Source: Candidatus Anstonella stagnisolia
GTDB taxonomy: Archaea > Micrarchaeota > Micrarchaeia > Anstonellales > Anstonellaceae
Direction of reading: 5' to 3'
Length of the DNA: 64,000 nucleotides
Assembly (NCBI GenBank): GCA_902384585.1
Contig: CABMCJ010000002.1
Coordinates: 156,179 to 220,178, forward strand
The first letter of the stretch is position 1. Every line of letters starts with the position of its first letter. Positions 10,542-51,068 of the stretch are shown piece after piece. The notes beneath the pieces are model-generated. The model worked only from the letters and a program-made list of their open reading frames with translations. It made no database searches and was not told the origin of the DNA. The position numbers and the translations under genes were made by a program.

Positions 10542-11819
10542 TCACTTTTTTATTCTTTCAAGCGCACTTTTTGCGTGCGCCTGCAACCCTTCTGCATTTG
10601 CAATTTCCGCGGTATTTTCCGCAAGCGTTGCAAGCCCGCTTTTTTTCACTTCTATTATTTCCACTGTTTTCATGAAGGAGGAAACTGACAAGCCGCCTGC
10701 GAACTTTGCGCTCCCGCCTGTTGGGAGCACGTGGTTTGAGCCAACGCAGTAGTCCCCGAATGCCTCGCAGGAGTTTTCCCCTACAAAAATTGCGCCAGCG
10801 TAGCGGATGAGGGGGAGGAGCTTGTTTGCACTTTTCAGCTGGATTTCAAGGTGTTCGGGTGCGAACTCGTTTGAGAAATCCACTATTTGCTGCAAGTCCT
10901 CAAAGTTTGCAGTAACTAAAATCAAATTTTGCAGGGACTTTTGCAATATTGTGCTCCTTGAAAGCGTTTTTGCCTGCGAAGATGCCTCTTTTCTTATCTC
11001 TGCTGCCATTTCTTCCTTGCATATCACAACCGCAATGGAATCCTCGCCGTGCTCAAGCTGTGCGAGGCAGTCTGCTGCGATTGTTCGCGCATTCGCACTT
11101 TCATCCGCAATTATGAGCACTTCGGTGGGTCCCGCAAGCATGTCTATGTCGCAGGTTTCGCTGCGCACCTGCCGTTTTGCCTCTGTTACATAGGAATTGC
11201 CGGGCCCGACTATTTTTTGAACTTTTGGAACAGTTTGCGTTCCGTATGCCATTGCCGCGATTGCCTGAGCGCCGCCTATTGCATAAACTTCTTTTATGCC
11301 GCAAATTGCGCACGCTGCAAGCACTGCGTCCGAAGGGGAAGGGGAGCAGAGGATGAGCTTTTCGACACCAGCAACCTGTGCGGGGATTGCGCACATAAGA
11401 ACTGTGGATGGGTAGGCTGCTTTTCCCCCTGGGGCGTATATCCCCGCGCTTTTTATGGGAACTGTTCTTTGCGTTATTTTTGCATAGGCGTTGTCTATTG
11501 TTTTTTCTTTTGGAACGGACTTAGTGCACGTTTCCCGTATGTTTTTTGCCGCAAACTGGAGGGCGGATAGAAGCTTAGGAGGAATGCATTCTTTTGCGCA
11601 TTTTATTTCGTCTTGGCTTATGCGCATTTCCGGTATGGATTGTATGCCTCCGAACTTGCGCTCATAGAAGAGGATTCCCTCGTCTCCTTGGGACTTCACG
11701 CGCGAGAGGATTTCGCTCACGCTGGCATCAACGCCCTGCATTTTAGCATTTTTGCGAAGGGATGCGGGGTTGCATTCGGATAGTTTGTATTCTAGTGCCA
11801 TGTTAAACACGCTCTGCAT
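10542..11819 (-). CDS. hisD: Histidinol dehydrogenase
   Basis: AGIYAPGGKAAYPSTVLM...GIKEVYAIGGAQAIAAMAYGT...IVGPGNSYVTEAKR is the HisD signature. The start is placed at an internal Met; the ORF extends to 11873. Confidence 0.9.
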   Translation of the reverse strand: MQSVFNMALEYKLSECNPASLRKNAKMQGVDASVSEILSRVKSQGDEGILFYERKFGGIQSIPEMRISQDEIKCAKECIPPKLLSALQFAAKNIRETCTKSVPKEKTIDNAYAKITQRTVPIKSAGIYAPGGKAAYPSTVLMCAIPAQVAGVEKLILCSPSPSDAVLAACAICGIKEVYAIGGAQAIAAMAYGTQTVPKVQKIVGPGNSYVTEAKRQVRSETCDIDMLAGPTEVLIIADESANARTIAADCLAQLEHGEDSIAVVICKEEMAAEIRKEASSQAKTLSRSTILQKSLQNLILVTANFEDLQQIVDFSNEFAPEHLEIQLKSANKLLPLIRYAGAIFVGENSCEAFGDYCVGSNHVLPTGGSAKFAGGLSVSSFMKTVEIIEVKKSGLATLAENTAEIANAEGLQAHAKSALERIKK

Positions 11820-11947
11820 GGAAGGGCGTGGGTGCCCTACTGATGAAGAAGGACTTTCTCTGCTGTATCCCACATTTTTCCCATATGCCCATTTTATGGG
11901 GAAACAGGTATTTAAAGCTATCGCTTTGGCGGCGAAAGAAAAACAAA

Positions 11948-15515: not shown

Positions 15516-16319
15516 TTACTGTGGATAGCCGGGGTTTTCGTACAAAAGGCGGATTTCCCCTGCGGAAAGCGGGCGGTTGAAAATCATCACTTCGTCTATT
15601 GTGCCGTTGAAGTTGTAATCGCCGGTAGCGCTGCCGGAGTATGTGCCTATGTAGATTGTGGCTGCACCGGAGCCGGTGTCTGCTTCCCTTGTGGAATTGC
15701 CAGCAATTGAGGCTTCGTTCCCATTAAAGTAGAATTTTGGCATGTCCCAGGAGGTGTCCTCAACTATTGCGACATGCTGCCAAACGCCGTTAGTGAGCCC
15801 GGTGGAAGTATAGGTGCGCCAGTTAGTTGCGCCATAATAGTAGTACCTTAGGACGTTTGAGGATTTGTCCATCCAGTATTGGGTGCCCTTGTCCAAAACT
15901 GCACCGCGCTGGTTGTCCGTGGGTTTTATCCATGCGATTAATGTCCTTGTGGCGGGCAGGCTCAATCCGTTTCCGCACGATACGTAATCGTCCGCGCCGT
16001 CGTATTCCAGGGCATAGTTGCTTTTTCCAGAAGTCCAAGTTGGGGAGCGCGTAGCATTCGCGCTGAACGTGCAATTTGCGCCGCCTTTGCTGTCTATGGA
16101 AGTTGTGCCGCCATTTTCATCGAATTTCCAATATGCGACCAAGCCCTGCAAAAGGTCTGGGTATTCCATTAACGCTATGCTGAACTGTATGTCCGACTGC
16201 TGGTTTTTTGCGTCCTTTGCGCTTTCAATCGGCCAGAAAAGGACTATGGACACCATTAGGGCTACGAAAAGGATTGCCCCAAGAATAACCAGATACTCCG
16301 TAGCTCCTTGCGCTTTCAT
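15516..16319 (-). CDS. Archaeal type IV pilin-like protein (class III signal peptide) with a LamG/ConA-like lectin-fold domain
   Basis: The start is trimmed to MKAQGATEYLVILGAILFVALMVSIV, a prepilin-like signal with a hydrophobic helix. A LamG-type motif set follows (LVAYWKFDENGG ... GTIDEVMIFNRPLSAGEI). It is a paralog of 44775-45611. Confidence 0.65.
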   Translation of the reverse strand: MKAQGATEYLVILGAILFVALMVSIVLFWPIESAKDAKNQQSDIQFSIALMEYPDLLQGLVAYWKFDENGGTTSIDSKGGANCTFSANATRSPTWTSGKSNYALEYDGADDYVSCGNGLSLPATRTLIAWIKPTDNQRGAVLDKGTQYWMDKSSNVLRYYYYGATNWRTYTSTGLTNGVWQHVAIVEDTSWDMPKFYFNGNEASIAGNSTREADTGSGAATIYIGTYSGSATGDYNFNGTIDEVMIFNRPLSAGEIRLLYENPGYPQ

Positions 16320-16362
16320 GGGAATTCTTCTATAACAAACAAGAAAAAGGTTTGCGGGGCGT

Positions 16363-17547
16363 TTATGCGCCCTTTTGCGAATGCAGGTGCACGATTGGGA
16401 TTTGCACCCCTGCAGCCTTTGAGAACTGCTTCGCCTTTTTCTCAACAAGGGTGCAGAGCGCGGAGTCGGAATAGAGCACAAAGTCCTCGCCTATGCTTGT
16501 GGAAAGGAGCGCGTGCTCAAGGGCATGGAAGCGGTGGTGGAAATGCATTTGCGAGCGGGTTGCGAGCTCCTGCGCAGTAAGGCCGTATATGCCGGAATTT
16601 TCGTGCGGGATTTTCAGGGAAATCGGGGTGATGGGCTCCATTTTATCAACGCACACTATATGCAAGGTGCCTGCGCCGGAGGGACTGGCTGCGGTTTTTG
16701 CTCCCTGTGCCTTGTCTTTTATTGGGAAGAATTTTGCTGCTGCCTCTGCAAGCGAATGCGGGCGGGGGGACTCCGGCTCTTTTGTGCGCAAATGCCTCTG
16801 CTCGTTGAGCTGGAAGAGAAGAGGGGGGGTGAGGCCTATTGGGTGCAAAAGTTCGGGCTGGGAAAAAAGCGAATCAGGCGTGCCGCTGAAAATATGCGCC
16901 CCGCGGTTGAGCACTATTACGTTGTCCGCCCATTCGTATGCGGTTTCCACGTCGTGCGTGGAAATCACGATTGTTTTTCCAAAATGGTTGAGCTCTTCGG
17001 AAAGTTCAAGGAGCTCGTGCACCATTTGAGAGTCAAGCCCTGCTGTTGGCTCGTCCATTATGAGGACTTGGGGATCCATTGCAAGCGCGCCTGCGAGCGC
17101 AACGCGCTTTTTCTGCCCAAAAGAGAGCTGCTGTGTGGGGCGCTCCCTGTATTCCTCCATCCCGACTGCTGCAAGGGACTCCTGCACTCGCCTTGAAACT
17201 TCGGCTGCAGGCAGGCCCATGTTGAGCGGCCCAAATGCGATGTCCTCCTCTACGGAAGGCGCGAAAATCTGGTCGTCGGGGTTTTGGAAAACAAGGGAGA
17301 TTTTTGAGCGGAGGAGCGAGAGGGATTTTGCATCGTAAGGGACGGGCTTCCCCTCAAAGAGCACCTCGCCTTCCTGCGCCTTGTGCACGCCGTTGAAATG
17401 TAGGAAGAGCGTGCTTTTTCCTGCGCCGTTTGGGCCAAGTATCACTGTTTTCTTCCCTTTTTCTATTGAGAGGGAGACGTTTGAAAGCGCGGCATTCCCT
17501 GCCTCGTAGGAGAAAGAAAGGTTTTTTGTTTGAAGTATTTGTTCCAT
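16363..17547 (-). CDS. nikO: ECF/ABC transporter ATPase component (NikO/CbiO) with a ~120-aa His-containing C-terminal extension
   Basis: Walker A GPNGAGKST, signature LSFGQKKRV and Walker B LIMDEPTAGLD. The C-terminal extension contains MHFHHRFHALEH. Confidence 0.85.
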   Translation of the reverse strand: MEQILQTKNLSFSYEAGNAALSNVSLSIEKGKKTVILGPNGAGKSTLFLHFNGVHKAQEGEVLFEGKPVPYDAKSLSLLRSKISLVFQNPDDQIFAPSVEEDIAFGPLNMGLPAAEVSRRVQESLAAVGMEEYRERPTQQLSFGQKKRVALAGALAMDPQVLIMDEPTAGLDSQMVHELLELSEELNHFGKTIVISTHDVETAYEWADNVIVLNRGAHIFSGTPDSLFSQPELLHPIGLTPPLLFQLNEQRHLRTKEPESPRPHSLAEAAAKFFPIKDKAQGAKTAASPSGAGTLHIVCVDKMEPITPISLKIPHENSGIYGLTAQELATRSQMHFHHRFHALEHALLSTSIGEDFVLYSDSALCTLVEKKAKQFSKAAGVQIPIVHLHSQKGA

Positions 17548-23056: not shown

Positions 23057-23958
23057 AAGTCGCTCAAAACATTCTGGAGCTTATTGGGGAAACTCCTATG
23101 GTGAGAATAAACCGTCTTGCGCCTTCGCACGTAGAAATATACGCAAAGCTTGAGGGGCAAAATATCGGGGGAAGCGTAAAGGACAGGATTGCGCTTTCCA
23201 TGATAGAGGCTGCGGAAAGAGCGGGGGAGCTTGAGGGAAAAATCATCCTTGAGCCCACTTCTGGAAATACCGGAATCGGGCTTGCGATTGTTGCTGCTGC
23301 AAAGGGATATCCCTTAGTTGTGACAATGTCTGCAGGAGTGAGCGAGGAAAGGAAAAGGATGCTAAGGGCATTGGGCGCAACCGTAATTGAAACTGATGCG
23401 CTCAAGGGGACTGACGGGGCAATATTGAAGGCGCACGAAATTTATGAGAAGGAAAAGGGGAAATATTGGATGCCAAACCAGTTTGCAAATGTGAACAACC
23501 CGAGGGCGCACTATGAGGGAACTGCGCGGGAAATATTGGAGCAGGTGCCGGATTTGGACGTGTTTGTTGCGGGAATGGGCACGAGCGGGACGCTTATGGG
23601 AGTTTCAAGGAGGCTGCGCGAGCAGGAAAGAAAGATACGCATTATTGCAACCGAGCCGCAAATGGGGCACAAAATTCAGGGGTTAAAGAGCCTCAAGGAG
23701 GCGATTGTGCCGCAAATTTGGGAGGAGAAGGCGGTTGATGAACGGATAATCGTAAGTGACGCGGATGCATATGAGACTGCGCGGGAGCTCGCAAAAAAGG
23801 AGGGGATATTTGTGGGCATGAGTTCGGGAGGCGCGATGTGGGCTGCGCTTGAGGTTGCAAAGAAAATAAGGGGCGGGAAAATAGTCGTGATATTCCCTGA
23901 CAGGGGGGAGAAATACTTGAGCACTGCGCTCTTTGGGCAGCTCACTCCTGTGGCTTAA
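23053..23958 (+). CDS. cysK: Cysteine synthase / O-acetylserine sulfhydrylase (PLP-dependent)
   Basis: GGSVKDR (PLP lysine) and the TSGNTGIGLA glycine loop. It could equally be CysM or cystathionine beta-synthase-like. Confidence 0.85.
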   Translation: MKVAQNILELIGETPMVRINRLAPSHVEIYAKLEGQNIGGSVKDRIALSMIEAAERAGELEGKIILEPTSGNTGIGLAIVAAAKGYPLVVTMSAGVSEERKRMLRALGATVIETDALKGTDGAILKAHEIYEKEKGKYWMPNQFANVNNPRAHYEGTAREILEQVPDLDVFVAGMGTSGTLMGVSRRLREQERKIRIIATEPQMGHKIQGLKSLKEAIVPQIWEEKAVDERIIVSDADAYETARELAKKEGIFVGMSSGGAMWAALEVAKKIRGGKIVVIFPDRGEKYLSTALFGQLTPVA

Positions 23959-24655
23959 GCCAGTTTTTATCAAGATAGTCCCGCAAGCCTGTTTCAAGCT
24001 CTTCAAAGAGGGATATTTTTCTTGCATACTTTCGCGCACCTGCGTTTATTGCCCAGTGCAGCGGCCCGATGCGCAGAAGCGTGGTTGCGGACGTAATGCC
24101 TAGCGCCCCAGTCAATGCCGCGTTTGAAATCTCGTGCCTCACTGGGAGCCCGAAATATTTTAGCGCTCCCTTGAACCCTGATGCTACTGCGCTGGTTATG
24201 GGTTTCGTGAACTCAAAATCAAGGTTTGATTCCACTATTTTTGCCACTTCAGGAAGATTGCGCCCAAGGCAGATTGCAAGGACGGAAAATGCCGTGCCGC
24301 CTATTAAAAGGGTGCGCGCGAGCCACACTGCATTGCGCCTTCTTTTTTCCGGTGCCGCAATGATTTTTTCTGCAGCAGCATCAAGTGCGCTTTCAAGCGC
24401 AGCCTCCTGTTCTTTTCTGGTGCCCTTTTCGCCGGCTATTCCCCCAAGCGACTGCATCCTGTTTTCTTCCTTTCTTTCCGCTTTTGATGCGGCATCATAA
24501 AGCGACCTGAAAAATTGGCTTTGGAATCTTGTTTCCCATGCCTTGGGCTGGTTTGTTTTGGCGGAAACAGAGAATTTGGAGCTTTCTATAGCGGCTGACA
24601 GTTTGGGCTGTGAGGTTATCGGACTCATGGTTATCGTGATTATTAGTGTGTGCAA
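23942..24655 (-). CDS. Hypothetical protein
   Basis: 237-aa ORF with no motif I recognise. It overlaps the 3' end of cysK convergently by 17 nt. Confidence 0.35.
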   Translation of the reverse strand: MHTLIITITMSPITSQPKLSAAIESSKFSVSAKTNQPKAWETRFQSQFFRSLYDAASKAERKEENRMQSLGGIAGEKGTRKEQEAALESALDAAAEKIIAAPEKRRRNAVWLARTLLIGGTAFSVLAICLGRNLPEVAKIVESNLDFEFTKPITSAVASGFKGALKYFGLPVRHEISNAALTGALGITSATTLLRIGPLHWAINAGARKYARKISLFEELETGLRDYLDKNWLKPQE

Positions 24656-25329: not shown

Positions 25330-25959
25330 CTAGTCAAAATAGACTTTTTCCTCTCTCCAAGGGTATTTTGCCCACAGTATGTTGCGGTCAAGAAGCTGCA
25401 GGCCGTTGCGCGTTGCCTTGAGCTCTTTTGAGAAATATGCCTCGTACCTTCCCCCTACTTCGGAGTGGTAGGAGATTGAGATGAGCATTTTTGCGCCTTC
25501 CCTGCCCCCGAGCGCATTCTTTGCAAAAGAGGTTATGTCCTGCGTCCTTTCGTTGTTCCCGTTTGCAGAATCGCTCACGTCAAGGTGGTGGTCAAACACT
25601 TCGAGCTTTTTGCCCGCAAGCTCAAGCTCCATGCCAAGGTCGTATATCGGGTGCTTTATTGTCTTGTAGGAGAGCAGCAGGCGTTTTCCCTCGTACTCTA
25701 TTTTCCATATCAGGACTGGGCGCACTGCAAGCTCTGCAGCCGCAACGTCCTTTGTGCGCGAGGAGAGCACGTTCACGTATGCGAAGTACAGGAGGGAGAT
25801 TGTTGCGACTATGCCGATTGCCTGCAAAAGCACGTAGGACTGGTTGAAGGAGAGCGCGGAAACCATGTAGCCGTAAAGCACAAATGCAAGCAGGACAAGC
25901 AGCAGCGCAAGCGCAACGAAAATGTAGTTCGGCTTTGAAGCCAGCGGATGCCTTCCCAT
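25330..25959 (-). CDS. Hypothetical membrane-anchored protein
   Basis: Start trimmed to MGRHPL. Two N-terminal TM helices are followed by a soluble domain. No motif recognised. Confidence 0.4.
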   Translation of the reverse strand: MGRHPLASKPNYIFVALALLLVLLAFVLYGYMVSALSFNQSYVLLQAIGIVATISLLYFAYVNVLSSRTKDVAAAELAVRPVLIWKIEYEGKRLLLSYKTIKHPIYDLGMELELAGKKLEVFDHHLDVSDSANGNNERTQDITSFAKNALGGREGAKMLISISYHSEVGGRYEAYFSKELKATRNGLQLLDRNILWAKYPWREEKVYFD

Positions 25960-26001
25960 GCAGGCATTTGAGGTAGATATTTTAAATAGGTTGGGGAAAA
26001 T

Positions 26002-27042
26002 TTGGGTATGGGCAAAATACAATCAAGGAAGGAAGAGCACGTGAGGATATGCCTTGAAGAGGACGTGCAGTACGCGCGCGGGCCGGGCTTTTCGGACATT
26101 GAGTTTTTGCACAATTCCGTGCCTGAGCTTGACATGGGGAAAATTGACATTGGCACAAGCTTTTTCGGCAGGAAAATGGATGCGCCGCTCATAATAGACG
26201 GGATGACTGGGGGATACCCGAAGGCGAAAGAGATAAACAAGAGGCTTGCTGCTGCGGCTGCAGAGCACAACGTGCCATTTGGGCTGGGCAGCCAGCGCGC
26301 GATGGTGGAAAACCCCATTCTCACGCAAACCTATGCGGTGCGCGACGTTGCGCCGGATGTTTTCATAATAGGGAATATCGGGGCTGCGCAAATTGCGCAC
26401 TATCCAATTGCAAAGATAAAGAGCGCGCTTGAGGCAATTGATGCGAATGCGCTTGCGGTGCATTTGAATGCATTGCAGGAGGCAGTTCAGCCCGAGGGGG
26501 ACCGCAACTTCGAGGGAGTGCTGCACGCAATTTCAAGATTGTCGGATTCGCTCAAGATACCGATTATTGCAAAGGAGACGGGCGCGGGGATTTGTGCGGA
26601 CTCTGCGGTGCGCCTGAAGAACGCGGGAGTCCAAATGCTGAACGTTTCTGGAAGCGGGGGAACATCCTGGAGCAAAGTGGAATATTTGAGGGGAAAGCCT
26701 GTGGAAGGGTTTGAAGAATGGGGAATCCCGACTGTTGTGAGCATTGTTTCCTGCGCGCACCATCTTCCGCTAATTGCATCGGGAGGGGTGAGAAGCGGCT
26801 TGGATGCTGCCAAAGCAATTGCATTGGGGGCCAAAATGGCTGCTGGGGCGCATCCTTTCCTGGCTGCGAAAAATCCGGCGGACGAGATGGGGAAGTGGAA
26901 AATGCAATTAAGGACTGCGATGTTCCTTTCGGGATGTGCGAACCTTGAGAAATTGGGGAAGAGCCGCATATTCGTTACGGGAAGAACGAAGCAGCTTCTT
27001 GAATGCCTGCGCGTGGACGTAAGCGAGTATGCGATGCGGTAA
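26002..27042 (+). CDS. fni: Isopentenyl-diphosphate delta-isomerase, type 2 (FMN-dependent)
   Basis: RKEEHVRICLEE...FGRKMDAPLIIDGMTGG...GSQRAM...ASGGVRSGLDAAKAIALGA are the IDI-2 TIM-barrel motifs. Confidence 0.85.
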   Translation: MGMGKIQSRKEEHVRICLEEDVQYARGPGFSDIEFLHNSVPELDMGKIDIGTSFFGRKMDAPLIIDGMTGGYPKAKEINKRLAAAAAEHNVPFGLGSQRAMVENPILTQTYAVRDVAPDVFIIGNIGAAQIAHYPIAKIKSALEAIDANALAVHLNALQEAVQPEGDRNFEGVLHAISRLSDSLKIPIIAKETGAGICADSAVRLKNAGVQMLNVSGSGGTSWSKVEYLRGKPVEGFEEWGIPTVVSIVSCAHHLPLIASGGVRSGLDAAKAIALGAKMAAGAHPFLAAKNPADEMGKWKMQLRTAMFLSGCANLEKLGKSRIFVTGRTKQLLECLRVDVSEYAMR

Positions 27043-27625: not shown

Positions 27626-29329
27626 ATGGAACTTTCGGAATCTATCCGCAAATGGACGCTAAAGAATTCGCATGACTACAAGCTTGCGATACCTGCGAAA
27701 ATAATTGGGAAAGTCATAGGGGAAGTGCCGCAAGCGAAAGCGGACATGAAGGGCACAATGGCGCTGATAAACGATGAAGCGAAAAGGGTGAATTCGCTGC
27801 CTCTTGAGCAGGTGGAGAAGGAGCTTGCTGCTTATTCTTTTGAAGAGAAGAAAGAGGAAAAGCGGGAAATCGAGCTTGAAGGAGCGGTTGCGGGCAAGGT
27901 TGTCACAAGGTTTGCGCCCGAGCCTTCGGGCTATCCGCACATAGGGCATGCAAAAGCGGCGTTCCTTGAGTACGTGCCTGTGCAGAGATACGGGGGCAAA
28001 ATGCTGCTGCGCTTTGATGATACAAACCCCGAGAAAGAGAAAGGGGAATTTGTGGATGCGATTAAGGAGGGGCTCGTGTGGCTTGGGATAAGCTGGCAGG
28101 AAGAGACCTACACATCGGATAGGATGGAAGAGTTCTACGGGTACATTGAGGAGCTTATGGTAAAGCACTGCGCATACGTGTGCACGTGCAATGCAGAGGA
28201 GATAAAGAAGAACAGGATGGGCATGAAGGAATGCGACTGCCGCGCGCGCGACGAGCAGGAGAACTTGCTTCTTTGGAAGAAAATGCTCACCGGAAAGCTT
28301 GCTGCGGGAGAGGCGGTTGTAAGGTACCACGGGGACATGCACGCGCAAAATACTGTGTTGAGGGACCCGACGCTTTTTCGCATAATAGAGGCAAGACACT
28401 ATAGGCAGGGGGAAAAATACAGGGTGTGGCCCTCGTACGATTTTGCCGCCCCAATAATGGATTCCCTTGAGGGAGTAACGCATGCAATGCGCTCAAAGGA
28501 ATATGAGTTAAGGGATGAACTGTACTTTCTCATTTTGAAAAAGCTGGAGCTGCGCGCACCCAGGCTCGTGGGATTTTCGCGCCTTGCAATAAAGGGTGCG
28601 CCTGTTTCAAAAAGGCTTATCACGCCGCTCATTGCAGATGGGAAAGTGAGCGGATATGATGACCCTAGGCTTCCCACGCTTGTTGCGCTTCGAAGACGCG
28701 GAATACAGCCGGAAGCGATAAGGGAATTCGTGCTCTCTTTTGGGCTTTCAAAAGTGGAGAGCGAGCCTGGCTGGGAAAAACTTTTGAACGAGAACAAGAA
28801 AATAATAGACCCGAAAAGCATGCGAAGGTATTTTGTGAAAAATCCGGTTTCGCTTAATGTGATGGGCGCTGTTGAGAGCATCAGGAAAGAGGCGCACATA
28901 CGCAACCATCCAACGCAGGACATGGGGGAGAGGGTTGTGCAAGCGGAGGGGAACTTTTGGATTTCAGGCACGGATGCTGCAAACTTGAAGCCGGATGAGA
29001 TTTTCAGGCTGAAAGATTTGTACAACGTGAAAGTTGCAAAAGTGGGGGACGGGATTGTGGGTGCGCATGCGGGGGAAGAAATGATTATGGGGAAGAAGTT
29101 CCAGTGGGTGAATGCAGCGGACTGCATAAAATGCGAAGTGCTTGTTGCAGGGGACTTGCTTATCGGGGAAAAATACAATGAGAACAGCCTGGGCGTAGAT
29201 GCGGGGCTGTGCGAGGGTGCATGCGCGCAGCTTGAAATCGGGGACATTGTGCAATTTGAAAGGTACGGGTTTGTAAAGCTGGATAAGAAAGAGGAAGGAA
29301 AACTCACATTTGTATTCGTGAGCGGATAA
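27626..29329 (+). CDS. gltX: Glutamyl-tRNA synthetase (archaeal type)
   Basis: RFAPEPSGYPHIGHAKAA is the HIGH region. The length and C-terminal anticodon-binding region are of the archaeal/eukaryotic type. Confidence 0.9.
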   Translation: MELSESIRKWTLKNSHDYKLAIPAKIIGKVIGEVPQAKADMKGTMALINDEAKRVNSLPLEQVEKELAAYSFEEKKEEKREIELEGAVAGKVVTRFAPEPSGYPHIGHAKAAFLEYVPVQRYGGKMLLRFDDTNPEKEKGEFVDAIKEGLVWLGISWQEETYTSDRMEEFYGYIEELMVKHCAYVCTCNAEEIKKNRMGMKECDCRARDEQENLLLWKKMLTGKLAAGEAVVRYHGDMHAQNTVLRDPTLFRIIEARHYRQGEKYRVWPSYDFAAPIMDSLEGVTHAMRSKEYELRDELYFLILKKLELRAPRLVGFSRLAIKGAPVSKRLITPLIADGKVSGYDDPRLPTLVALRRRGIQPEAIREFVLSFGLSKVESEPGWEKLLNENKKIIDPKSMRRYFVKNPVSLNVMGAVESIRKEAHIRNHPTQDMGERVVQAEGNFWISGTDAANLKPDEIFRLKDLYNVKVAKVGDGIVGAHAGEEMIMGKKFQWVNAADCIKCEVLVAGDLLIGEKYNENSLGVDAGLCEGACAQLEIGDIVQFERYGFVKLDKKEEGKLTFVFVSG

Positions 29330-29368
29330 GCACAAAGGAATAAAAAGGGCAGGCAGCCAAAAATATAT

Positions 29369-30382
29369 GTGATATATATGGCTTTGTCCCAACTACCACA
29401 AAAATTCGCAGATGCACCGAAAACAATAAGCGGGCTCGGCGAGATTTGCGTTGCTACTTATAAGGATGAAAAAAGCGGGAAAACGTACGGGCAGAGGCTT
29501 CTTGTGAAAAACGCAGATGGAGAATTCTATGATTACCGCATGTTCAGCAACCCCAAAAATGAAAAGGCATGGCTTAGCGCCGAGGAATGGTGGAACAAGG
29601 TAGGGCTGGACAAGAGAAAATATTCTGTTGAGATAAAATCGCTGAGCGAATCGGGCATAAGCATTGCAAAGGTGGATGCAGGGACTGCTGCTGCAGGGCA
29701 GAAAAACATTGAGAGGGTGCAGACAGGCATTGATGGGATGAGGATTACCGACCTGCGGTACAAATGCGGGATTTTCCGCGACCTTTATAGGCAGGAGAAT
29801 GGGTACGCAGACCTTCTTGGAAGGGCAAAGGCGATAATAGAGAATGTTAACCAGTACGTGCAGATGTATAATGGGGTGAGGGAGCAAAAGATTACGGTGG
29901 CGGATTCGCTTGCGGTAATTGCAACAGAATCCCTAATCGACCCGAATGCAAAATCTCCCACTGGCTGCAAGAATTATGGGCAGTTTTCAACCCAAACTGC
30001 GGATTCGTTAAGGGACCCGGACGGGAATCGGATTTTCACTGAGAGGAAAGTCGGGAAAAGGGGATTGACGCTAAAGGACATTTGGGACCCTGAGAAAGCA
30101 GTGCATGCAACTGTCAATTATTTCACAGAACTGTACGATATGTATGGCGGCAACTATGGAAAGGCAGTGAAGGCATATAATATAGGGCCGGGCAAGGTAA
30201 GGAAAAAAGGCAATACTGGCGAGACAGACCACACCAGGCGCGCACGGGAATGGAGGAGGTTCTTCAAGGAGATAAACGTAGAGCGCCTCCTTGAGCCTGG
30301 AATGACGGTGGAGAAATTCATGCAGCAGCCTGAATTCGCAAACGTGTATGCAAGGCTTGAGCAGCAGTACAAGCGCGCATAA
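29369..30382 (+). CDS. Protein with a family-1 lytic transglycosylase (SLT) domain
   Basis: All three SLT motifs appear in order: E-S (VIATESLIDPNAKSPTG), the Gly/Gln motif (GCKNYGQFSTQTADSL), and AYN-x-GPG (GGNYGKAVKAYNIGPGKV). No N-terminal signal peptide is evident. Confidence 0.65.
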   Translation: MIYMALSQLPQKFADAPKTISGLGEICVATYKDEKSGKTYGQRLLVKNADGEFYDYRMFSNPKNEKAWLSAEEWWNKVGLDKRKYSVEIKSLSESGISIAKVDAGTAAAGQKNIERVQTGIDGMRITDLRYKCGIFRDLYRQENGYADLLGRAKAIIENVNQYVQMYNGVREQKITVADSLAVIATESLIDPNAKSPTGCKNYGQFSTQTADSLRDPDGNRIFTERKVGKRGLTLKDIWDPEKAVHATVNYFTELYDMYGGNYGKAVKAYNIGPGKVRKKGNTGETDHTRRAREWRRFFKEINVERLLEPGMTVEKFMQQPEFANVYARLEQQYKRA

Positions 30383-30417
30383 AGCCTCTTTTTATTTTCT
30401 TCTTCTGATATCTTTTC

Positions 30418-32547
30418 ATGCTGGATGAATTTTCCCCTAAAGTTTTCATTGAGAAGGAGAGCAGTGCGTCTTTTGGGGAGTGCGCAATTGACGAGAGGCT
30501 CAAGTTCGCGCTCTCAAACAGGGGCATAAGCAGGCTGTATGCGCACCAGTGCGAAGCGATTGGGAAAATTGGGGAAGGGAAAAACATTGTGATTGTTGCG
30601 CCCACTGCATCGGGAAAAACTGAGAGTTACATGCTGCCCGCTGTGCTTGCTGCGCTGCGCGGGGAGAATGTGCTTGTTGTGTATCCCACAAAGGCGCTTT
30701 CACGCGACCAGCTTGCAAGATGGAGGGAATTTTCCCTTCTTGGAGTGCGCGCGGAAATATTTGACGGGGACACGAGCGACTACTGGAGGGAGAAGATAAA
30801 GGGAAGCCCTCCGCAGGTGCTAATTACGAACTTTGACATGCTGCACTTTTTACTTATGCAAAGCAGGAATTTGTCGCCCTTTTGGAAAAACCTGAGAATG
30901 GTGGTGGTGGACGAGCTGCACACATACTCCGGAGTATTGGGGGCGCACGTTTCAAACATTGTGTGGAGGCTCAAAAGAGTGTGCGAAAAGCACCAGAATG
31001 CAAAAAAACTGCAGTTTGTGTGCTGCTCCGCGACAATTGCGAATGCGCAGGAATTTGCAAATGCGATTTTTGAGGAGGAATTTGAGGGCGTGCAGGCATC
31101 CGGGGCGCCAAAGCCGTATGTCGAGCACTATGTTGTAAATCCGGGGGATGAGAGCTACACTACAACCGCGCTAAAAGTTGTGAAGGAGCTTGGGAAAAAA
31201 ACGCTTCTTTTTGGGAATTCGCACGCGGTTGTGGAGCGCCTCGGCGTGATGGCGGGGGACATGGGGCTTTCACTTGCTGTGTATAGGGCTGGGCTGGAAA
31301 TGCGGGAGAGAAAAGAGATAGAGGAGGAGTTTCGTTCTGGAAAAGTGAAAATACTTGCAACAACAAGCGCGCTTGAGCTTGGGATAGACATTGGGAGCGT
31401 GGATGCGGTTGTGCTCGCGGGCTTTCCTGGGACTATTACAAGGTTTAGGCAGAGGGTGGGGAGGGCGGGAAGAAAGGGGCAGAAGGCATATGCGGTTTAT
31501 ATTGCGCGGGACAATCCGCTGGACCAGTATTTTGCAGAATCTCCGGAAAGATATTTGGAAGGGGAACCGGAGAGGTGCTTTGTGAACCCCTACAATGAGG
31601 CGGTTTCGCAGGCGCATGTAATATGCGCAAGCAGGGACTTTCCGCTTGCAGACTCTGAGCTCTCTGGGAAAAGGCGGGAGCGCGCAAGCGAATTGCTGCA
31701 AAAAGGGATGCTAAAGCGCTGGGGAAGCAGGCTTATTCCCTCGAAAGATGCGCTGCGCTTTGTAAAGGAGAGCGGGATACGAAGCGAAGCAGAGCCGGTT
31801 GAGATTGTGGATGCGAATACGGGTCGGAAAATGGGTGAGAGGGAAGAGCACATGGCGATAAGGGAGCTGCACCCTGGAGCGATTTATTTGCACGGGGGGG
31901 TGCATTATAGGGGAGTGGAATTTGATGCAAAGGGAAAGATTGCAAAAATTGCGCGGGATGCAAGCGCAAAGGGGTATTATACGAGCGCGCTGCACCAAAA
32001 GGAATACGAGGCGCTTGAAACTATTAAGGAGCGGGAAGTTTTCGGAAGGACGCTTTATTTTGGGAGGATGCATATAAGGGACACGGTGGAGGGGTATGCG
32101 CTCAAGGATGTGTACACGCAGGAAACCGTTGCGAAACATCCCCTTGCGCAGGAACTTGTGCACGAGTTTGATACGCTGGGAATTTGGCTGGATTTTGAGG
32201 GCGAGGCGCATATTGGGAACTTTGCAGACGGGCTGCACGCACTTGAACACGTGAGCATTTCCATGATGCCTGCGATTTGCGGGAGCGACCCTGCGGAAAT
32301 TGGGGGGATTTCTTATCCGAGCGGTGCAATGGCAGTTTATGAGGGGGTTGCATTTGGGAACGGGGCAACCGCGCAGATATTTGAGAAGTATGAGAAAGTT
32401 ATGGAGATGAGTGCGGACAGGCTGGAGAAATGTGCGTGCGAAAAAGGATGCCCTAAGTGCATATTTTCCCCGATGTGCGGGAACAACAATAGGTATTTGG
32501 ACAAGGAGGCTGGGCTTAAGATTGCAAAGGAAGTCCTGAAAAACTAG
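30418..32547 (+). CDS. DEAD/DEAH-box helicase with C-terminal DUF1998 zinc module (MrfA/YprA-like)
   Basis: Motif I VAPTASGKTES, motif II VVDELHTYSG, helicase C-domain motifs, and the C-terminal CACEKGCPKCIFSPMCGNNNRYLDKEAG hallmark of DUF1998. Confidence 0.8.
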   Translation: MLDEFSPKVFIEKESSASFGECAIDERLKFALSNRGISRLYAHQCEAIGKIGEGKNIVIVAPTASGKTESYMLPAVLAALRGENVLVVYPTKALSRDQLARWREFSLLGVRAEIFDGDTSDYWREKIKGSPPQVLITNFDMLHFLLMQSRNLSPFWKNLRMVVVDELHTYSGVLGAHVSNIVWRLKRVCEKHQNAKKLQFVCCSATIANAQEFANAIFEEEFEGVQASGAPKPYVEHYVVNPGDESYTTTALKVVKELGKKTLLFGNSHAVVERLGVMAGDMGLSLAVYRAGLEMRERKEIEEEFRSGKVKILATTSALELGIDIGSVDAVVLAGFPGTITRFRQRVGRAGRKGQKAYAVYIARDNPLDQYFAESPERYLEGEPERCFVNPYNEAVSQAHVICASRDFPLADSELSGKRRERASELLQKGMLKRWGSRLIPSKDALRFVKESGIRSEAEPVEIVDANTGRKMGEREEHMAIRELHPGAIYLHGGVHYRGVEFDAKGKIAKIARDASAKGYYTSALHQKEYEALETIKEREVFGRTLYFGRMHIRDTVEGYALKDVYTQETVAKHPLAQELVHEFDTLGIWLDFEGEAHIGNFADGLHALEHVSISMMPAICGSDPAEIGGISYPSGAMAVYEGVAFGNGATAQIFEKYEKVMEMSADRLEKCACEKGCPKCIFSPMCGNNNRYLDKEAGLKIAKEVLKN

Positions 32548-33191
32548 CCTGAGCCGTCGGTTTCGTTCAGCGAGCCGAACATCTGGAGAGATTTTGTTGG
32601 GTTGATTTTTTCAAACAATGTGCGAAGCTCATTCAGCTTTTCGCGTATGCCATCCAGCCCGTATGCGCGCGCGATTTCCATTGCAGAGATGTACCTTCCG
32701 CGCCGTATTTCAGTAGTTGCTGCATCATGTGCGCGGCCACGCACCGCAGCATCATCAAGCTTGAAATGCCGCGCCAGCTCGTGCACAAGCTCGTCGTCGT
32801 TTGTTAGTATGCAGCAGTATATTGCGGCTTTTGAAAGTTCAATTTCCAGTTCAGTGGGCTTTTCGCGGGCTGGCGGGCGCATTTTTATTATGCTGTGATT
32901 TAGTGAAAAGCCAAGCTTGGAGAGAGCATTGTCGCGAAGTTTCATGTATTTTAGGATGCTGGGCTTTGCGCTTTCCCGCGCGTGCGCACGCATTGCGCCC
33001 AGAAGACTGAAGCTTTCCTTTTTTTTATTCTCTTTTGCAAGATGCTGCGCAACCTGCAGGCGGTCTGTCATAGGGAGCATGCTTATGAAACTGGCAAAAG
33101 AATCAGGGCGTGGGGGTTTCTTGGGGGCAGGAAGATAGAGAGTAGACATTCCTATGCCTGTGAGTTGTAAAACGTTTATTCGGGCTGCCAT
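32544..33191 (-). CDS. Hypothetical protein
   Basis: 215-aa ORF convergent on the helicase with a 4-nt overlap. No motif recognised. Confidence 0.35.
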   Translation of the reverse strand: MAARINVLQLTGIGMSTLYLPAPKKPPRPDSFASFISMLPMTDRLQVAQHLAKENKKKESFSLLGAMRAHARESAKPSILKYMKLRDNALSKLGFSLNHSIIKMRPPAREKPTELEIELSKAAIYCCILTNDDELVHELARHFKLDDAAVRGRAHDAATTEIRRGRYISAMEIARAYGLDGIREKLNELRTLFEKINPTKSLQMFGSLNETDGSG

Positions 33192-39033: not shown

Positions 39034-40200
39034 CTAATCGTATGTCACGAACGTGACATCCACTTCCTTTTCGTAGCCGGATGAGCTTATCACCATGCCA
39101 AGCGCATTTGCCTTTGCGATTGCATCGTTGAGGGCTTTCTGGTCGCTTGAGTTGAGCGTGGAAATTGTTGTGACTTTTTTCGTCACAGTTTTGGGAGTTG
39201 CTGGGACCGCGTTTTTGTCAGCAGGCTGCTGCGGGCGGTACATTGTCGTGCTCATTACTGTTGAGCGCGCATTGAGCACGCTGATGCTGCGCGTGACGCT
39301 TGTGTAGCCGTCCTTGCGAAGCTCGATTGTGTATTTTGCGGGTGAGAGCTGCAGGGTTGCAGGGGTGGTACCGTAATTCCTTCCGCCTATGTATATTGCA
39401 GCGCCGTCAGGGTTGGATGTTATTGTGAGGTTGCCCATCTGCGGTGCCTGGGGGATGCGTTCAAGCGTAACATTGATGAGCGCGGTTTCGCCTGCGCGTA
39501 TTTGGGCATTTGCAGTGTAGTTGTAGTAGCCTGTTTTTGTGAGAAGCACGGAGTGCCGCCCTTCCGAGAGGTTTTGCACGGTAAGGGGCGTTGTGCCTTT
39601 TGCGGAATTGTCAACAAACGCGCTTGCGCGAAGAGGGAAGGATTCTATGCGCAGCGACCCTGTCGGGGCGCGAAGCGCAAATCGCTGAGTGATATTGTCA
39701 CCTGCCCGAAGCGTTACGTTTGCGGATGCGGGAAGGTAGCCGTTCTTTGAGACAAATATTGTGTAGGTGCCTGCAGGCATTACTGCTGCGCGCGGCGTTG
39801 TGCCATATGAGGTTCCCCTTATTGTAATTTGCGCGCCCGAGGGGTCGCTGAGTATGTTTATTGTGCCTGTTGCGCGAAGGGTTACATTCACAGTAATGGT
39901 ATTGTTTACTGGAACCACTATGTTGGAAAATTCAGGGTAATAGCCGTCCTTTGTTATCCTTAGCTGGTAGGTGCCGGAGAGCACGCGGTCAAGGGAAAAA
40001 GGAGTGTGCCCGTCGCCGCCTTGTATTGCTGGCTGGTGCGCAACGTTTCCATCGCGAGTGAAAACTTCCACGCGGGCATCTGAGGGAAGTGTGTTTACGC
40101 GAAGAGAGCCGTAGTTTGCGGCGCGTGCGTTTATGCCAACATCCGCAAACGAAAGCGAAAGGAGCGCGAGCGCGCACAGCAGGAATATTGCGTTTTTCAT
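39034..40200 (-). CDS. Secreted protein with four tandem PEGA-like domains
   Basis: Signal peptide MKNAIFLLCALALLSLSFA. It is followed by four ~85-aa repeats of the pattern (I/V)xSxPxGAxIxIxGxxxGTTP...GxYxIxxxKxGY. A Thr/Ser-rich tail follows. Confidence 0.65.
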   Translation of the reverse strand: MKNAIFLLCALALLSLSFADVGINARAANYGSLRVNTLPSDARVEVFTRDGNVAHQPAIQGGDGHTPFSLDRVLSGTYQLRITKDGYYPEFSNIVVPVNNTITVNVTLRATGTINILSDPSGAQITIRGTSYGTTPRAAVMPAGTYTIFVSKNGYLPASANVTLRAGDNITQRFALRAPTGSLRIESFPLRASAFVDNSAKGTTPLTVQNLSEGRHSVLLTKTGYYNYTANAQIRAGETALINVTLERIPQAPQMGNLTITSNPDGAAIYIGGRNYGTTPATLQLSPAKYTIELRKDGYTSVTRSISVLNARSTVMSTTMYRPQQPADKNAVPATPKTVTKKVTTISTLNSSDQKALNDAIAKANALGMVISSSGYEKEVDVTFVTYD

Positions 40201-44774: not shown

Positions 44775-45611
44775 TTAGGGGTAGCCGGGATTTTGATAAA
44801 GAAGCTGTATTTCGCCATCCGAAAGCACGCGGTGGTATATCTGGACTTCGTCTATGCTTCCATCAACGTAAAAACTGTTTATAACGCTTGGAATTTGAAG
44901 CACAGTTCCCTGGAATGAGTCTACATTGGCATTTGTAGTGGAACCTATCAGGGCGCCATTAACATACAGGCTGGCGGTCTTTGTAGCCTTATTGAAAGTT
45001 CCAGTAAGCATATACCATTGGCCGGCAACAAGCGTTGCACCGGGAGTTTCTGCATAAGTTCCTGAATTTTTAGCTACAGTAAAATATACGGTGCTTGTCC
45101 AACGTTTTGTCCAGAGTGCCCATCCGGCAACCTGCGGTACGTCACTTGAGAAGTAAGTTCCAGAAGAGATGGGTATGCTGTAGATGCTTGTAAAACTATC
45201 GAATTTGACAAACATATTTACGGTTAGGTCGGTCGCATCAGAAATTATCGCACTGGGGCTATTTACGCTGCAATATTGGGACGTGCTAGCGGTGTGCAAC
45301 GCATTTCCGCTTTTTCCGCTTGCCCAAGTGCCGGAGAAAGTGCAGGTATACCCGCCTCTGTTATCTGCGGCTGATGCACCGCTTCCCTCGTCAAATTTAA
45401 AGTATGCAACAAGCCCCTGCAAAAGATCCGGGTATTGCATTGCGGCTATTTTGAATTTCGTGTCTGTCTGGGATTTCTTTGTGTCTTTTGTTGTGCCAGT
45501 TGGCCAGACAAGAAGCGCGACGCAAATAAGGGCTATTCCTAGGACTACGCTCATAAGAACTAAATATTCCGTAGCTCCTTGCGCTTTTTTAGTTTGTGTT
45601 ATGCCCGCCAC
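44775..45611 (-). CDS. Archaeal type IV pilin-like protein with LamG/ConA-like domain (paralog 2)
   Basis: MAGITQTKKAQGATEYLVLMSVVLGIALICVALLV is a class-III-type signal. The conserved blocks QYPDLLQGLVAYFKFDEGSG and GSIDEVQIYHRVLSDGEIQLLYQNPGYP are shared with 15516-16319. Confidence 0.65.
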   Translation of the reverse strand: MAGITQTKKAQGATEYLVLMSVVLGIALICVALLVWPTGTTKDTKKSQTDTKFKIAAMQYPDLLQGLVAYFKFDEGSGASAADNRGGYTCTFSGTWASGKSGNALHTASTSQYCSVNSPSAIISDATDLTVNMFVKFDSFTSIYSIPISSGTYFSSDVPQVAGWALWTKRWTSTVYFTVAKNSGTYAETPGATLVAGQWYMLTGTFNKATKTASLYVNGALIGSTTNANVDSFQGTVLQIPSVINSFYVDGSIDEVQIYHRVLSDGEIQLLYQNPGYP

Positions 45612-47224: not shown

Positions 47225-47358
47225 TGCCCCACCCGGGTGCGAAAAGCAGGGAAAACGCCAATTCTTTAAATACTTTTGTATTCATATATGTATATTAGTT
47301 TTGCACGCTCTTTAGATGTCAAATTTTAATGCTAAACTAAATACCAAAGGTGAGAAAT

Positions 47359-49011
47359 ATGGGAAAAAACTTGGAAGGACAACAAATTTTAGTGCTGCCT
47401 GAGGGCTCAAACAGAGTTATAGGCAGGGACGCGCAGCGCTCAAACATCGCAGTCGCGTACGCGGTTGCAAACATTGTGAGGACGACATTGGGACCAAAGG
47501 GAATGGACAAAATGCTTGTGTCCGAGATGGGCGACATTGTAATTACAAACGACGGGGCAACGATATTGGAAGAGATGAACGTTGAGCACCCGGCTGCAAA
47601 AATACTTGTAGAGGTTGCAAAGACGCAGGACAAGGAAGTCGGGGACGGCACAACGACCGCGGCAATGCTTGCGGGAATGCTCCTTAAGAAAGCCGGAGAC
47701 TTGCTTGACCAGGACATACACGCATCCACGATTGTGAACGGGTATTCGATGGCGGCAAAGAAGACCGAAGAGGTGCTTGCAAAAATAAGCAGGCCGATTT
47801 CAATTGAGGATAAGGCAACGCTCCTGAAAATCGCGGCTATTTCAATGGGCTCAAAATCCGTTGGAGTGGGAACTGCAAAAGACACACTCGCAGGGATGGT
47901 GGTGTCCGCAGTAACGCAGGTTGCCGAGAAAAAAGACGGCAAATACGTTGTGGACCACGAACTCATCAAGATAGAGAAGAAGGCGGGCGGGGAAATCGCA
48001 GACACCACGCTCATAAAGGGCGTGCTTGTGGACAAGGAAATTGTGCACCAGAACATGCCAAAGGCAATAAAGAACGCAAAGCTTGCGCTTCTTGACTGCG
48101 CGCTTGAGATTGAGAAGACTGAAGTGGATGCAAAAATTGAGATTACATCCCCAGACCAGATGCAGTCCTTCCTGGAGCAGGAAGAGAAAATGCTCAAGGA
48201 CATGGTGGAGAAGATTTCAAAGACAGGCGCGAACGTCGTATTCTGCCAGAAGGGCATTGATGATGTTGCGCAGCACTTCCTTGCGAAAAAGGGAATTTCT
48301 GCAGTTCGCAGGGTAAAGAAATCCGACATGGAGAAGCTCTCAAGGGCGACTGGCGCGAAAATCGCAACAACTCTTGATGACCTTGCCCCAACAGACCTTG
48401 GAAGCGCAGGGGACGTTGTGGAGCGCTCTATTGCGGGCGAAAAGATGGTATTTGTTGAAAACTGCAAGGACCCAAAGAGCGTCACAATATTTGTGCGCGC
48501 ATCAACCGACCACGTTGTGTCCGAAGGGGAACGCGCAATAGTGGACGCGATTGGGGCAGTATCCTCTGCAATAGAGGACGGCAGGTACGTAACCGGCGGC
48601 GGCTCTGCGGAAATGGAAATCGCAGCGCAGCTCACCAAGTACGCAACCGAAATAGGCGGCCGCGAGCAGCTTGCAATAATAGCATTTGCAGAGGCGCTTG
48701 AAATCGTGCCGCGCACGCTTGCCGAGAACACGGGCATGGATGCAATAGACACGCTTGTGTCGCTTCGCTCAAAGCACAAGAAAGAGGACGGCGCGCACTT
48801 TGGCGTGGACGTGTACAAGGCAGAAGTTGCAGACATGGACAAGCTCGGCGTTATTGAGCCTTCGAAAGTGAAAAAGCAGGCAATCGCATCAGGCTTTGAG
48901 GCTGCAAAGATGCTTCTAAGGATTGATGACATGATTGCGTCCAAGGGCAAGTCGGGCGGAATGCCACCGGGCGGGCCTGGAGGCATGGGCGGAATGGGCG
49001 GGGACTACTAG
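47359..49011 (+). CDS. ths: Thermosome subunit (group II chaperonin)
   Basis: GQQILVLPEG...TLGPKGMDKMLV...GDGTTTA ATP-binding motif, plus a C-terminal GGMPPGGPGGMGGMGGDY tail. The start is trimmed to MGKNLEG. Confidence 0.9.
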   Translation: MGKNLEGQQILVLPEGSNRVIGRDAQRSNIAVAYAVANIVRTTLGPKGMDKMLVSEMGDIVITNDGATILEEMNVEHPAAKILVEVAKTQDKEVGDGTTTAAMLAGMLLKKAGDLLDQDIHASTIVNGYSMAAKKTEEVLAKISRPISIEDKATLLKIAAISMGSKSVGVGTAKDTLAGMVVSAVTQVAEKKDGKYVVDHELIKIEKKAGGEIADTTLIKGVLVDKEIVHQNMPKAIKNAKLALLDCALEIEKTEVDAKIEITSPDQMQSFLEQEEKMLKDMVEKISKTGANVVFCQKGIDDVAQHFLAKKGISAVRRVKKSDMEKLSRATGAKIATTLDDLAPTDLGSAGDVVERSIAGEKMVFVENCKDPKSVTIFVRASTDHVVSEGERAIVDAIGAVSSAIEDGRYVTGGGSAEMEIAAQLTKYATEIGGREQLAIIAFAEALEIVPRTLAENTGMDAIDTLVSLRSKHKKEDGAHFGVDVYKAEVADMDKLGVIEPSKVKKQAIASGFEAAKMLLRIDDMIASKGKSGGMPPGGPGGMGGMGGDY

Positions 49012-49014
49012 AGT

Positions 49015-49055
49015 CTCCTTCTTCTTTTTTCTTTATTTATTTTTCCCATTTTATT
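49015..49055. terminator. T-rich intergenic terminator region between convergent ths and 49051-49938
   Basis: tctccttcttcttttttctttatttatttttcccattttattcttcttttg lies immediately after the thermosome stop. Confidence 0.35.
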
Positions 49056-50960: not shown

Positions 50961-51068
50961 GTATGGCACCTTAGTGCCACTATTGGAGCATTTTAGGTAT
51001 AATAAAGAAAGTATGTATTTTTGCCTCAAAACAAAAATATAATAAAGATTTATTTGGAAATAGAGCAT

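Follow-up and report, generated by a model that had tools for sequence, protein, structure and literature searches.

In a 64-kb stretch of DNA (hereafter "the window") from Candidatus Anstonella stagnisolia, an archaeon of the class Micrarchaeia within the DPANN group, we found a gene encoding a transglycosylase SLT-domain protein in which a family-1 lytic transglycosylase domain follows an undescribed N-terminal module. We hold with moderate confidence that the product is a modular lytic transglycosylase acting on bacterial peptidoglycan outside the cell, with the module serving for targeting, binding, or delivery. An earlier reading of the letters by a model, made without database searches (hereafter "the sequence-only reading"), had placed this SLT protein in an archaeon other than the pseudomurein-containing methanogens. 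The window indeed carries a complete archaeal 23S ribosomal RNA (rRNA) gene at 53311-56302 (-), and the protein is 100% identical to the NCBI entry "Transglycosylase SLT domain protein" [Candidatus Anstonella stagnisolia]. The gene and the parts of its product are listed below; residues are numbered on the protein of 334 amino acids (aa) unless the 337-aa numbering is stated, and pLDDT is the predicted local distance difference test score of the AlphaFold model.

29369..30382, + strand: SLT-domain open reading frame (ORF) read from a GTG, 337 aa
29378..30382, + strand: likely coding sequence from ATG 29378, stop codon included, 334 aa, as in the NCBI gene model
29405..29653, + strand: N-terminal module, residues ~10-92, with the motif FYDYRM and invariant D52, W65, and W71, shared by 17 proteins
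29654..29797, + strand: variable linker, residues 93-140, with model residues 105-131 at pLDDT <50
29798..30226, + strand: SLT / family-1 lytic transglycosylase catalytic domain, residues 141-283, by Pfam, Foldseek, and profile comparison
29927..29929, + strand: GAA codon of the predicted catalytic Glu184 (Glu187 in the 337-aa numbering)
30014..30103, + strand: insertion DPDGNRIF...WDPEKAV in the catalytic domain; the model shows a beta hairpin at 337-aa residues 226-235
30227..30379, + strand: C-terminal helical tail, residues 284-334, with the motif RRFFKEINVERL...EKFMQQPEF, pLDDT 94-98

The catalytic domain was identified by profile, motif, and structure. Pfam SLT (PF01464, CAZy family GH23) matched residues 181-283 with 54 bits (E 1.5e-14) against a gathering score of 21.3 bits, far beyond chance. 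The sequence-only reading had proposed a family-1 SLT domain with the motifs ES, GQ, and AYNIGPG in this order and had suggested a profile search as a check; the domain passed the curated threshold, and the three motifs follow one another as proposed, with ATES at 182-185 as motif I (E184-S185), NYGQFS at 199-204 as motif II in place of GLMQ, with L and M replaced, and AYNIGPG at 266-272 as motif III. Across an alignment of 74 sequences, the equivalents of the motif residues E, S, G, Q, Y, N, and G, including the Gln of motif II and the Gly three residues earlier (residue 199), were conserved at 90% or more. When PDB sequences were searched with phmmer, the ES motif aligned with that of E. coli Slt70, which we take to hold the catalytic Glu478, and AYNIGPG aligned with AYNAGPG. 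Enzymes of family 1 cleave the bond between N-acetylmuramic acid (MurNAc) and N-acetylglucosamine (GlcNAc) non-hydrolytically and leave 1,6-anhydroMurNAc.

An AlphaFold model built on the same alignment (mean pLDDT 86.9; mostly >90 over residues 140-337 and <50 only at 1-9 and 105-131, 337-aa numbering) predicts a lysozyme-like alpha-helical fold. Its best Foldseek matches in the PDB were Slt, Slt70, MltC, MltE, MltD, and MltF (probability 1.00) as well as LtgA, and all of the top 50 were lytic transglycosylases or T7 gp16. The conserved Glu and the matching fold, on which the sequence-only reading had made its claim depend, were thus both found. That reading had pointed to Slt70 and MltE for structural comparison; both were among the top Foldseek matches, but by family profile the closest PDB entries were those of MltC (9vi7, E 1e-10; 4c5f, E 1.3e-6), ahead of Slt and Slt70.

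The likeness to E. coli MltC (family 1B) extends from the ES, G..Q, and AYNxG motifs to an insertion between motifs II and III, where DGNRIF...IWDPEKAV of the window protein aligns with GKDVF...LFDPEKNI of MltC (9vi7, 4c5f). This insertion agrees with the MltC subfamily pattern G-x-x-(V/I)-F...(F/W)-D-P-E-x-N/A-(I/V) and is kept family-wide (consensus D..G..IF....D.EKNI). MltC is a lipoprotein whose N-terminal domain is Pfam DUF3393, whereas the archaeal protein has neither DUF3393 nor a lipobox or signal, carries a module unrelated to the N-terminal domain of MltC, and is only ~20% identical to it. Slt70 (family 1A; 1qsa, 1qte) is the best single-sequence match in the PDB and has the same catalytic fold, but it is a periplasmic protein of 618 residues whose superhelical U and L domains are missing from the 334-residue archaeal protein, and the NCBIfam Slt70 equivalog PRK11619 reached 24 bits against a cut-off of 536 bits, in the catalytic domain only. 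Judged by sequence, the window protein would act as a family-1 enzyme with a 1B-like catalytic domain, but it lies outside every named subfamily. The helical tail is likewise conserved across the family (..FF.E..V..L....FM....Y) and, at 86%, is the best-conserved part relative to the closest orthologue, P0002 (P and L numbers are our own handles).

The extent of the family was evaluated through an exhaustive phmmer search over 1.84 billion cluster representatives, which returned 140 matches at E ≤ 1e-3 and 7 at E ≤ 1e-10. A local hidden Markov model of the N-terminal region, which the sequence-only reading had missed, located this region in 17 fetched proteins (~17 clusters); the seven closest family members scored 59-543 bits, and the nearest proteins outside the family 48 bits or less. 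Members are 320-540 aa long and share one architecture, i.e., a module of ~80 residues, a variable linker, an SLT domain with the insertion, and the helical tail. Every member with readable context lies on an archaeal contig among archaeal housekeeping genes. One cluster member is labelled Candidatus Micrarchaeia, and its gene is found on contigs of 629 kb and 1.1 Mb, flanked by methionine aminopeptidase and, on the opposite side, by TATA-binding protein (TBP), L21e, and KsgA; other members adjoin Nop and PurL, or L7Ae, S28e, L24e, and aIF5B. Further searches added little to this picture: a metagenome scan yielded only two true family loci, both already among the known ones, and a word-indexed protein search recovered the closest members only, even with alignments as the query. 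A scan of genome contigs with the family alignment, which is no taxonomic survey as it missed the source genome itself, returned bacterial SLT genes only (Vibrio and others). In IMG/VR, patterns for the module and the SLT domain gave only generic SLT matches of ~30% identity and none to the module. As the contexts are archaeal and the viral matches generic only, we consider the family a lineage-specific, chromosomally inherited set rather than a mobile one.

Next, we evaluated the conservation of the locus. The order IDI2, glutamyl-tRNA synthetase (GluRS), SLT gene, helicase is kept in the contigs that bear P0002, and the order GluRS, SLT gene, helicase in those that bear P0003; the latter order is common to three lineages. 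At this fixed locus (27626-32547 compared with L001 and L030), the SLT protein is strikingly divergent, with 40-74% identity against 89-94% in the flanks:

P0002 lineage: GluRS 94%, IDI2 91%, and helicase 92%; SLT protein 74%
P0003 lineage: helicase 89%; SLT protein 40% overall, module 51%, catalytic domain 38%

The ratio of non-synonymous to synonymous substitution rates (dN/dS) relative to P0002 was 0.145 for the SLT gene, <0.2 in every segment, and 0.05-0.07 for the flanks, values that are approximate because dS is ~1. The gene is functional and under purifying selection while diverging much faster than its surroundings. Such fast divergence is common among surface, interaction, or antagonism genes, and the identities seen here would be expected of a gene engaged in interaction or antagonism. 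That the gene is instead a decaying, non-functional remnant of an old transfer would agree with its ~3-fold faster evolution than its neighbors and with the missing export signal. Yet dN/dS is well under 1 throughout the gene, none of the relatives has a broken reading frame, the catalytic motifs are conserved, and the fold is confidently predicted, which together make a relic barely credible.

The sequence-only reading had also entertained a laterally acquired phage or plasmid gene, a suggestion that did not hold, at least for recent transfer. Acquisition from a phage, a plasmid, or a bacterium, or an origin as part of a provirus, would be in line with the generic SLT domains on viral contigs and with the PHROG endolysin and lytic-tail families that match the SLT domain (E 1e-11 to 1e-14); phages often carry SLT domains in their tail, internal-virion, and endolysin proteins. 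Phage virion transglycosylases (T7 gp16; PHROG 669, 2013, and 342) resemble the window protein in fold and by profile; their SLT domains are leaderless too, and they are delivered without Sec. They are, however, parts of large virion proteins in phage genomes, whereas the window gene is chromosomal and has no viral neighbors. Its GC content (0.487), GC at third codon positions (GC3, 0.558), and codon usage are within the range of the housekeeping neighbors, it is flanked by GluRS, IDI2, and the helicase, no integrase or virion genes were seen within 20 kb on either side and no plasmid genes near the locus, and both the synteny and the score gap between family and non-family proteins also speak against a recent acquisition. 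We therefore rejected a provirus or mobile element, given the native composition, the housekeeping neighbors, and the absence of the module from IMG/VR, and regard a recent acquisition as very improbable. The SLT gene is best explained as a resident chromosomal gene, with no recent import from a phage or plasmid.

The N-terminal module has the consensus ..Y....GK.Y.RLL.K..DGK.FDYRM.....W...E.W....GL and in its model two long beta strands are followed by a short bridge, then a helix, and finally a third strand; the pLDDT is 79 when it is predicted alone and >90 within the full model. Pfam on the full protein reported SLT only and nothing in residues 1-105, no PHROG family matched the module, and a Foldseek search with it gave no significant match (best E 0.53 in the PDB and 0.027 in BFVD). 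The disordered linker that follows is the least conserved part of the protein (19% identity to P0003) and ranges from ~40 to >200 residues across the family. The module occurs once or twice per protein, with two copies in P0044, and in P0009 and P0172 it is fused to a different C-terminal domain. P0172, a 440-aa "hypothetical protein" of Ca. Micrarchaeia, is encoded on the same strand as the SLT paralogue P0008, which it immediately precedes (L035 8553-9875 + and 10001-11563 +), and its Cys/His-motif domain is orthologous to that of P0009. This second domain has the conserved motifs NDCYTWF, VGD.V, and HWG, which hhalign places, weakly (E 0.012), on the catalytic Cys and His motifs of the murein endopeptidase MepS of E. 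coli; Pfam gave sub-threshold C92 and DUF6950 matches only, and no sequence relative was found in the PDB. The second protein may thus be a papain-like (NlpC/P60-type) wall peptidase, which we offer as a lead and not as a result. Use of the module once or twice, variable linkers, and a second type of C-terminal domain amount to a modularity that is typical of wall hydrolases.

One module on two unrelated C-terminal domains, adjacent in one genome, could also be read as the trafficking domain of a leaderless, polymorphic-toxin-like effector system that brings SLT or Cys/His "warheads" to an export or contact-dependent delivery route. Hyper-divergent alleles at a fixed locus would fit such a system, as would the pentapeptide M[LIF][IVC]FQ with which the distant family members begin; many of them also end with GYLS or YLSGFDF (such termini are found in P0004, P0005, P0011, P0023, P0040, P0044, and P0075). 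Because codons differ between L032 (136-150) and L033 (946-960), the pentapeptide is a protein-level feature; the idea that the conserved MLIFQ start is a mis-called promoter element was rejected on the same grounds, since the codons change between loci and the peptide does not. The one member with a signal-like peptide lacks the pentapeptide, in line with a trafficking role, but so do the window protein and the two relatives nearest to it. Moreover, no candidate machinery is encoded beside any family member, a plain substrate-binding module would account for the same domain swaps, and glycan binding would explain the three invariant residues, which include two Trp, at least equally well. We thus consider a trafficking module unlikely. 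It is similarly doubtful that the module marks out a set of wall-degrading effectors (SLT and Cys/His hydrolases) that is specific to Micrarchaeia, leaderless, and fast-evolving, with non-Sec delivery to bacteria; if true, this set would represent a polymorphic-effector-like weapon or feeding tool of DPANN archaea against bacteria.

Signal peptides were called with a crude Kyte-Doolittle hydropathy test of 19-residue stretches only. In the window protein, the maximum (0.86) falls on the helix of the catalytic Glu, and we found neither an N-terminal hydrophobic stretch nor a lipobox, i.e., no classical Sec or Tat signal or other mark of an extracytoplasmic location. The statement in the sequence-only reading that there is no obvious signal peptide is therefore correct, and the route by which the protein would be exported may be a different one. 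The catalytic helix is the most hydrophobic stretch in 16 of the 17 family members, and a signal- or lipoprotein-like hydrophobic segment at the N-terminus, KLLLTGVCAGLAISSLSC, is confined to P0008 and P0167 (in P0008 it ends LSSLSC). Since this segment is signal-like, at least one family member is probably secreted, and the N-terminus of P0008 provides a hint that the family acts outside the cell.

In the murein-directed reading that we favor, and that the sequence-only reading had also put first, the module, the flexible linker, and the MltC/Slt70-like domain would together form a cell-wall glycan-cleaving enzyme, which would work outside the archaeal cell and cut bacterial peptidoglycan at its beta-1,4 MurNAc-GlcNAc bond. 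Cleavage would serve attack on, attachment to, or feeding on bacteria or wall debris, and the module, shared with a second, probably papain-like wall hydrolase, would target, bind, or deliver the enzyme. Several observations weigh against this reading. GH23/SLT folds are able to bind chitin-like glycans, so the substrate could differ, and the Tyr found in the tail of most family members is aligned with a His in the window protein and P0002. Neither a signal peptide nor a transmembrane segment was detected in the window protein and 15 other members, which makes their extracellular location conjectural, and no secretion, pilus, or injection genes were found near the SLT gene. The papain-like call for the paralogue is weak, with Pfam Peptidase_C92 at 14-16 bits against a 27-bit cut-off in both sequences and hhalign matches at the MepS value given above and at E 0.27 for YaeF. 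Finally, the known hosts of Micrarchaeota are wall-less or S-layer archaea, not bacteria (PMC12892359).

Some of these points would be met more directly by a non-murein substrate, such as chitin-like GlcNAc polymers, a glycan of the cell's own envelope, or a glycan of an archaeal host, with the enzyme acting at the host contact site or, intracellularly, on imported oligosaccharides. That 16 of 17 members have no signal peptide would, taken at face value, fit this alternative, as would the His in the tail; in addition, family-1 transglycosylases bind chito-oligosaccharides (PDB 4hjy, 7lam, and 8rhi), and the reported partners of Micrarchaeota are archaea (PMC12892359). On the other hand, the full family-1 motif set of ES, G..Q, and AYNxG is retained, the closest structures are all murein enzymes, one member has a signal-like N-terminus, and the Cys and His motifs of the paired paralogue line up with a murein endopeptidase. 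The SLT fold is not known to have a cytoplasmic role. We consider a non-murein substrate less probable than bacterial peptidoglycan.

Lytic transglycosylases of DPANN archaea, including Micrarchaeota, have been published between 2013 and 2022 as proteins binding or degrading bacterial walls (PMC8204110, PMC9723730, PMC5864196). Such domains were noted in 2013 and 2015, analyzed as large extracellular proteins of Woesearchaeota and Pacearchaeota (PMC8204110), and read as signs of predation on bacteria (PMC9723730), and a lytic murein transglycosylase proposed to target bacteria was reported from three Micrarchaeota genomes (PMC5864196). Because of these publications, and because the gene was already annotated as SLT-domain, the core of the finding is known. 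The Woesearchaeota and Pacearchaeota enzymes are likewise SLT/GH23-domain proteins of DPANN archaea without murein of their own, but those of fam00969 (PMC8204110), a family restricted to these two lineages, reach 3,000 aa and are predicted to be extracellular, whereas the window family is 320-540 aa long, mostly leaderless, and has its own module, a distinction drawn from the published description. The three Micrarchaeota transglycosylases (PMC5864196) share the SLT/GH23 domain, again by description only. Archaeal peptidoglycan hydrolases have been shown experimentally to kill bacteria, and a known signal peptide is present in just 32% of the archaeal homologues (PMC12352652). Among these hydrolases, Woldo and Danwoldo of Halogranum salarium, whose bacterial target was demonstrated experimentally (PMC12352652), similarly combine a catalytic domain with a binding module in an archaeal producer, but they have peptidase and glucosaminidase domains, PG_binding_1 modules, and Tat signals, unlike the window protein with its SLT domain and no signal. 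The two published accounts of Anstonella do not mention the SLT gene; no other archaeon at its site was as abundant as Ca. Anstonella on day 0 of sampling, and its order is considered less host-dependent than other DPANN lineages (PMC8561730, PMC12892359).

New are the definition of the family, its undescribed module and the sharing of this module with a second hydrolase-like protein, as well as the MltC-like subtype of the catalytic domain, the lack of a leader, and the hyper-divergence at a fixed locus. The gain is thus a concrete, well-defined family and module rather than a new concept. DPANN archaea are abundant and their way of life is poorly understood; a conserved, fast-diverging murein-type cleaver, perhaps partnered by a paralogue that cuts peptides and carries the same module, would suggest that Micrarchaeia interact directly with bacteria, in the form of antagonism, predation, or recycling of wall debris, besides those with archaeal hosts. 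At 334 aa, the protein is a small and tractable subject for studying murein cutting and the exit of leaderless wall hydrolases.

At the nucleotide level, the SLT gene is bordered by the following features:

29337..29347, + strand: TATA-box-like intergenic motif GGAATAAAAAG, ~30 nucleotides (nt) upstream of the start codon
29369-29373, + strand: Shine-Dalgarno (SD)-like GTGAT, containing the GTG taken as the start in the mechanical ORF list
30389..30398, + strand: T-tract TTTTTATTTT, just after the SLT stop codon and 20 nt before the helicase ATG, read from the sequence
30418-32547, + strand: DEXH helicase with DEAD, Helicase_C, and the MrfA Zn-binding domain PF09369 (MZB, formerly DUF1998), by Pfam

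ATG 29378 is the likely start because the SD-like GTGAT precedes it and the NCBI gene model agrees; in relatives, GGTGGT or GGTGAT stands at an equal distance from their own ATG. The 11-mer GGAATAAAAAG is common to the GluRS-SLT spacers of the window, L001, and L030/L031, and may have a promoter role. The T-tract TTTTTATTTT sits in the 35-nt spacer (30383-30417) between the SLT stop codon and the helicase start, and could be either an archaeal oligo-T terminator of the SLT gene or a TATA element of a near-leaderless helicase transcript.

The DUF1998 helicase that the sequence-only reading had placed beside the SLT gene is indeed its downstream neighbor, and PADLOC matches to it were to generic helicase cores. 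A functional link between the two genes was considered and rejected, as neighbors differ in more distant family members, which adjoin PurL, CDC48, ribosomal proteins, or TBP instead of a helicase; the adjacency is probably incidental. Upstream of the SLT gene are genes for a CDC48-type AAA ATPase, cysteine synthase, VIT1, type-2 isopentenyl diphosphate isomerase (IDI2), and archaeal GluRS, and the helicase is followed by NYN, TatD, an MFS transporter, beta-CASP, RFC, isoleucyl-tRNA synthetase (IleRS), enolase, and thermosome genes. No second copy of the SLT domain or of the N-terminal module was found within the window.

A histidine biosynthesis cluster lies further upstream, with HisG at 7325-8161 and HisD at 10542-11873, and between these 8789-10537 (-) encodes a class I/II aminotransferase fused to a HAD phosphatase domain, which may be a fusion of HisC with a histidinol phosphatase. 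Two Laminin_G_3 (concanavalin-A-like lectin) proteins and a four-PEGA/CarboxypepD_reg protein, encoded at 15516-16481 (-), 44775-45611 (-), and 39034-40200 (-), are candidate surface or adhesion proteins. The 23S rRNA gene stands alone, as no 16S rRNA, 5S rRNA, or transfer RNA (tRNA) genes were detected in the 64 kb, and the rRNA genes therefore appear to be unlinked. The GC content of the window is 49.9%, against the 62.2% quoted for the metagenome-assembled genome (MAG) Ca. Anstonella stagnisolia LFW-35 (PMC8561730); the mismatch could be due to a typo, a different assembly, or a binning issue.

Several ORFs of 215-387 aa had no Pfam match, at 32544-33191 (-), 23942-24655 (-), 25330-26022 (-), and 49051-51068 (-); a 230-aa ORF among them is conserved at 81% in L001, and the one at 32544-33191 (-) had no NCBIfam, PHROG, or PADLOC match either. 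A 549-aa ORF with an ATG start at 47337-48986 (-) runs antisense to the thermosome gene (47350-49011, +) and is probably a compositional artefact. Finally, 51021-52031 (+) encodes a 336-aa protein with two tandem AsnC/Lrp-type helix-turn-helix domains and an AsnC ligand-binding domain, which makes it an Lrp/AsnC regulator with a duplication, and this gene overlaps an alternative ORF on the opposite strand (51303-52007).

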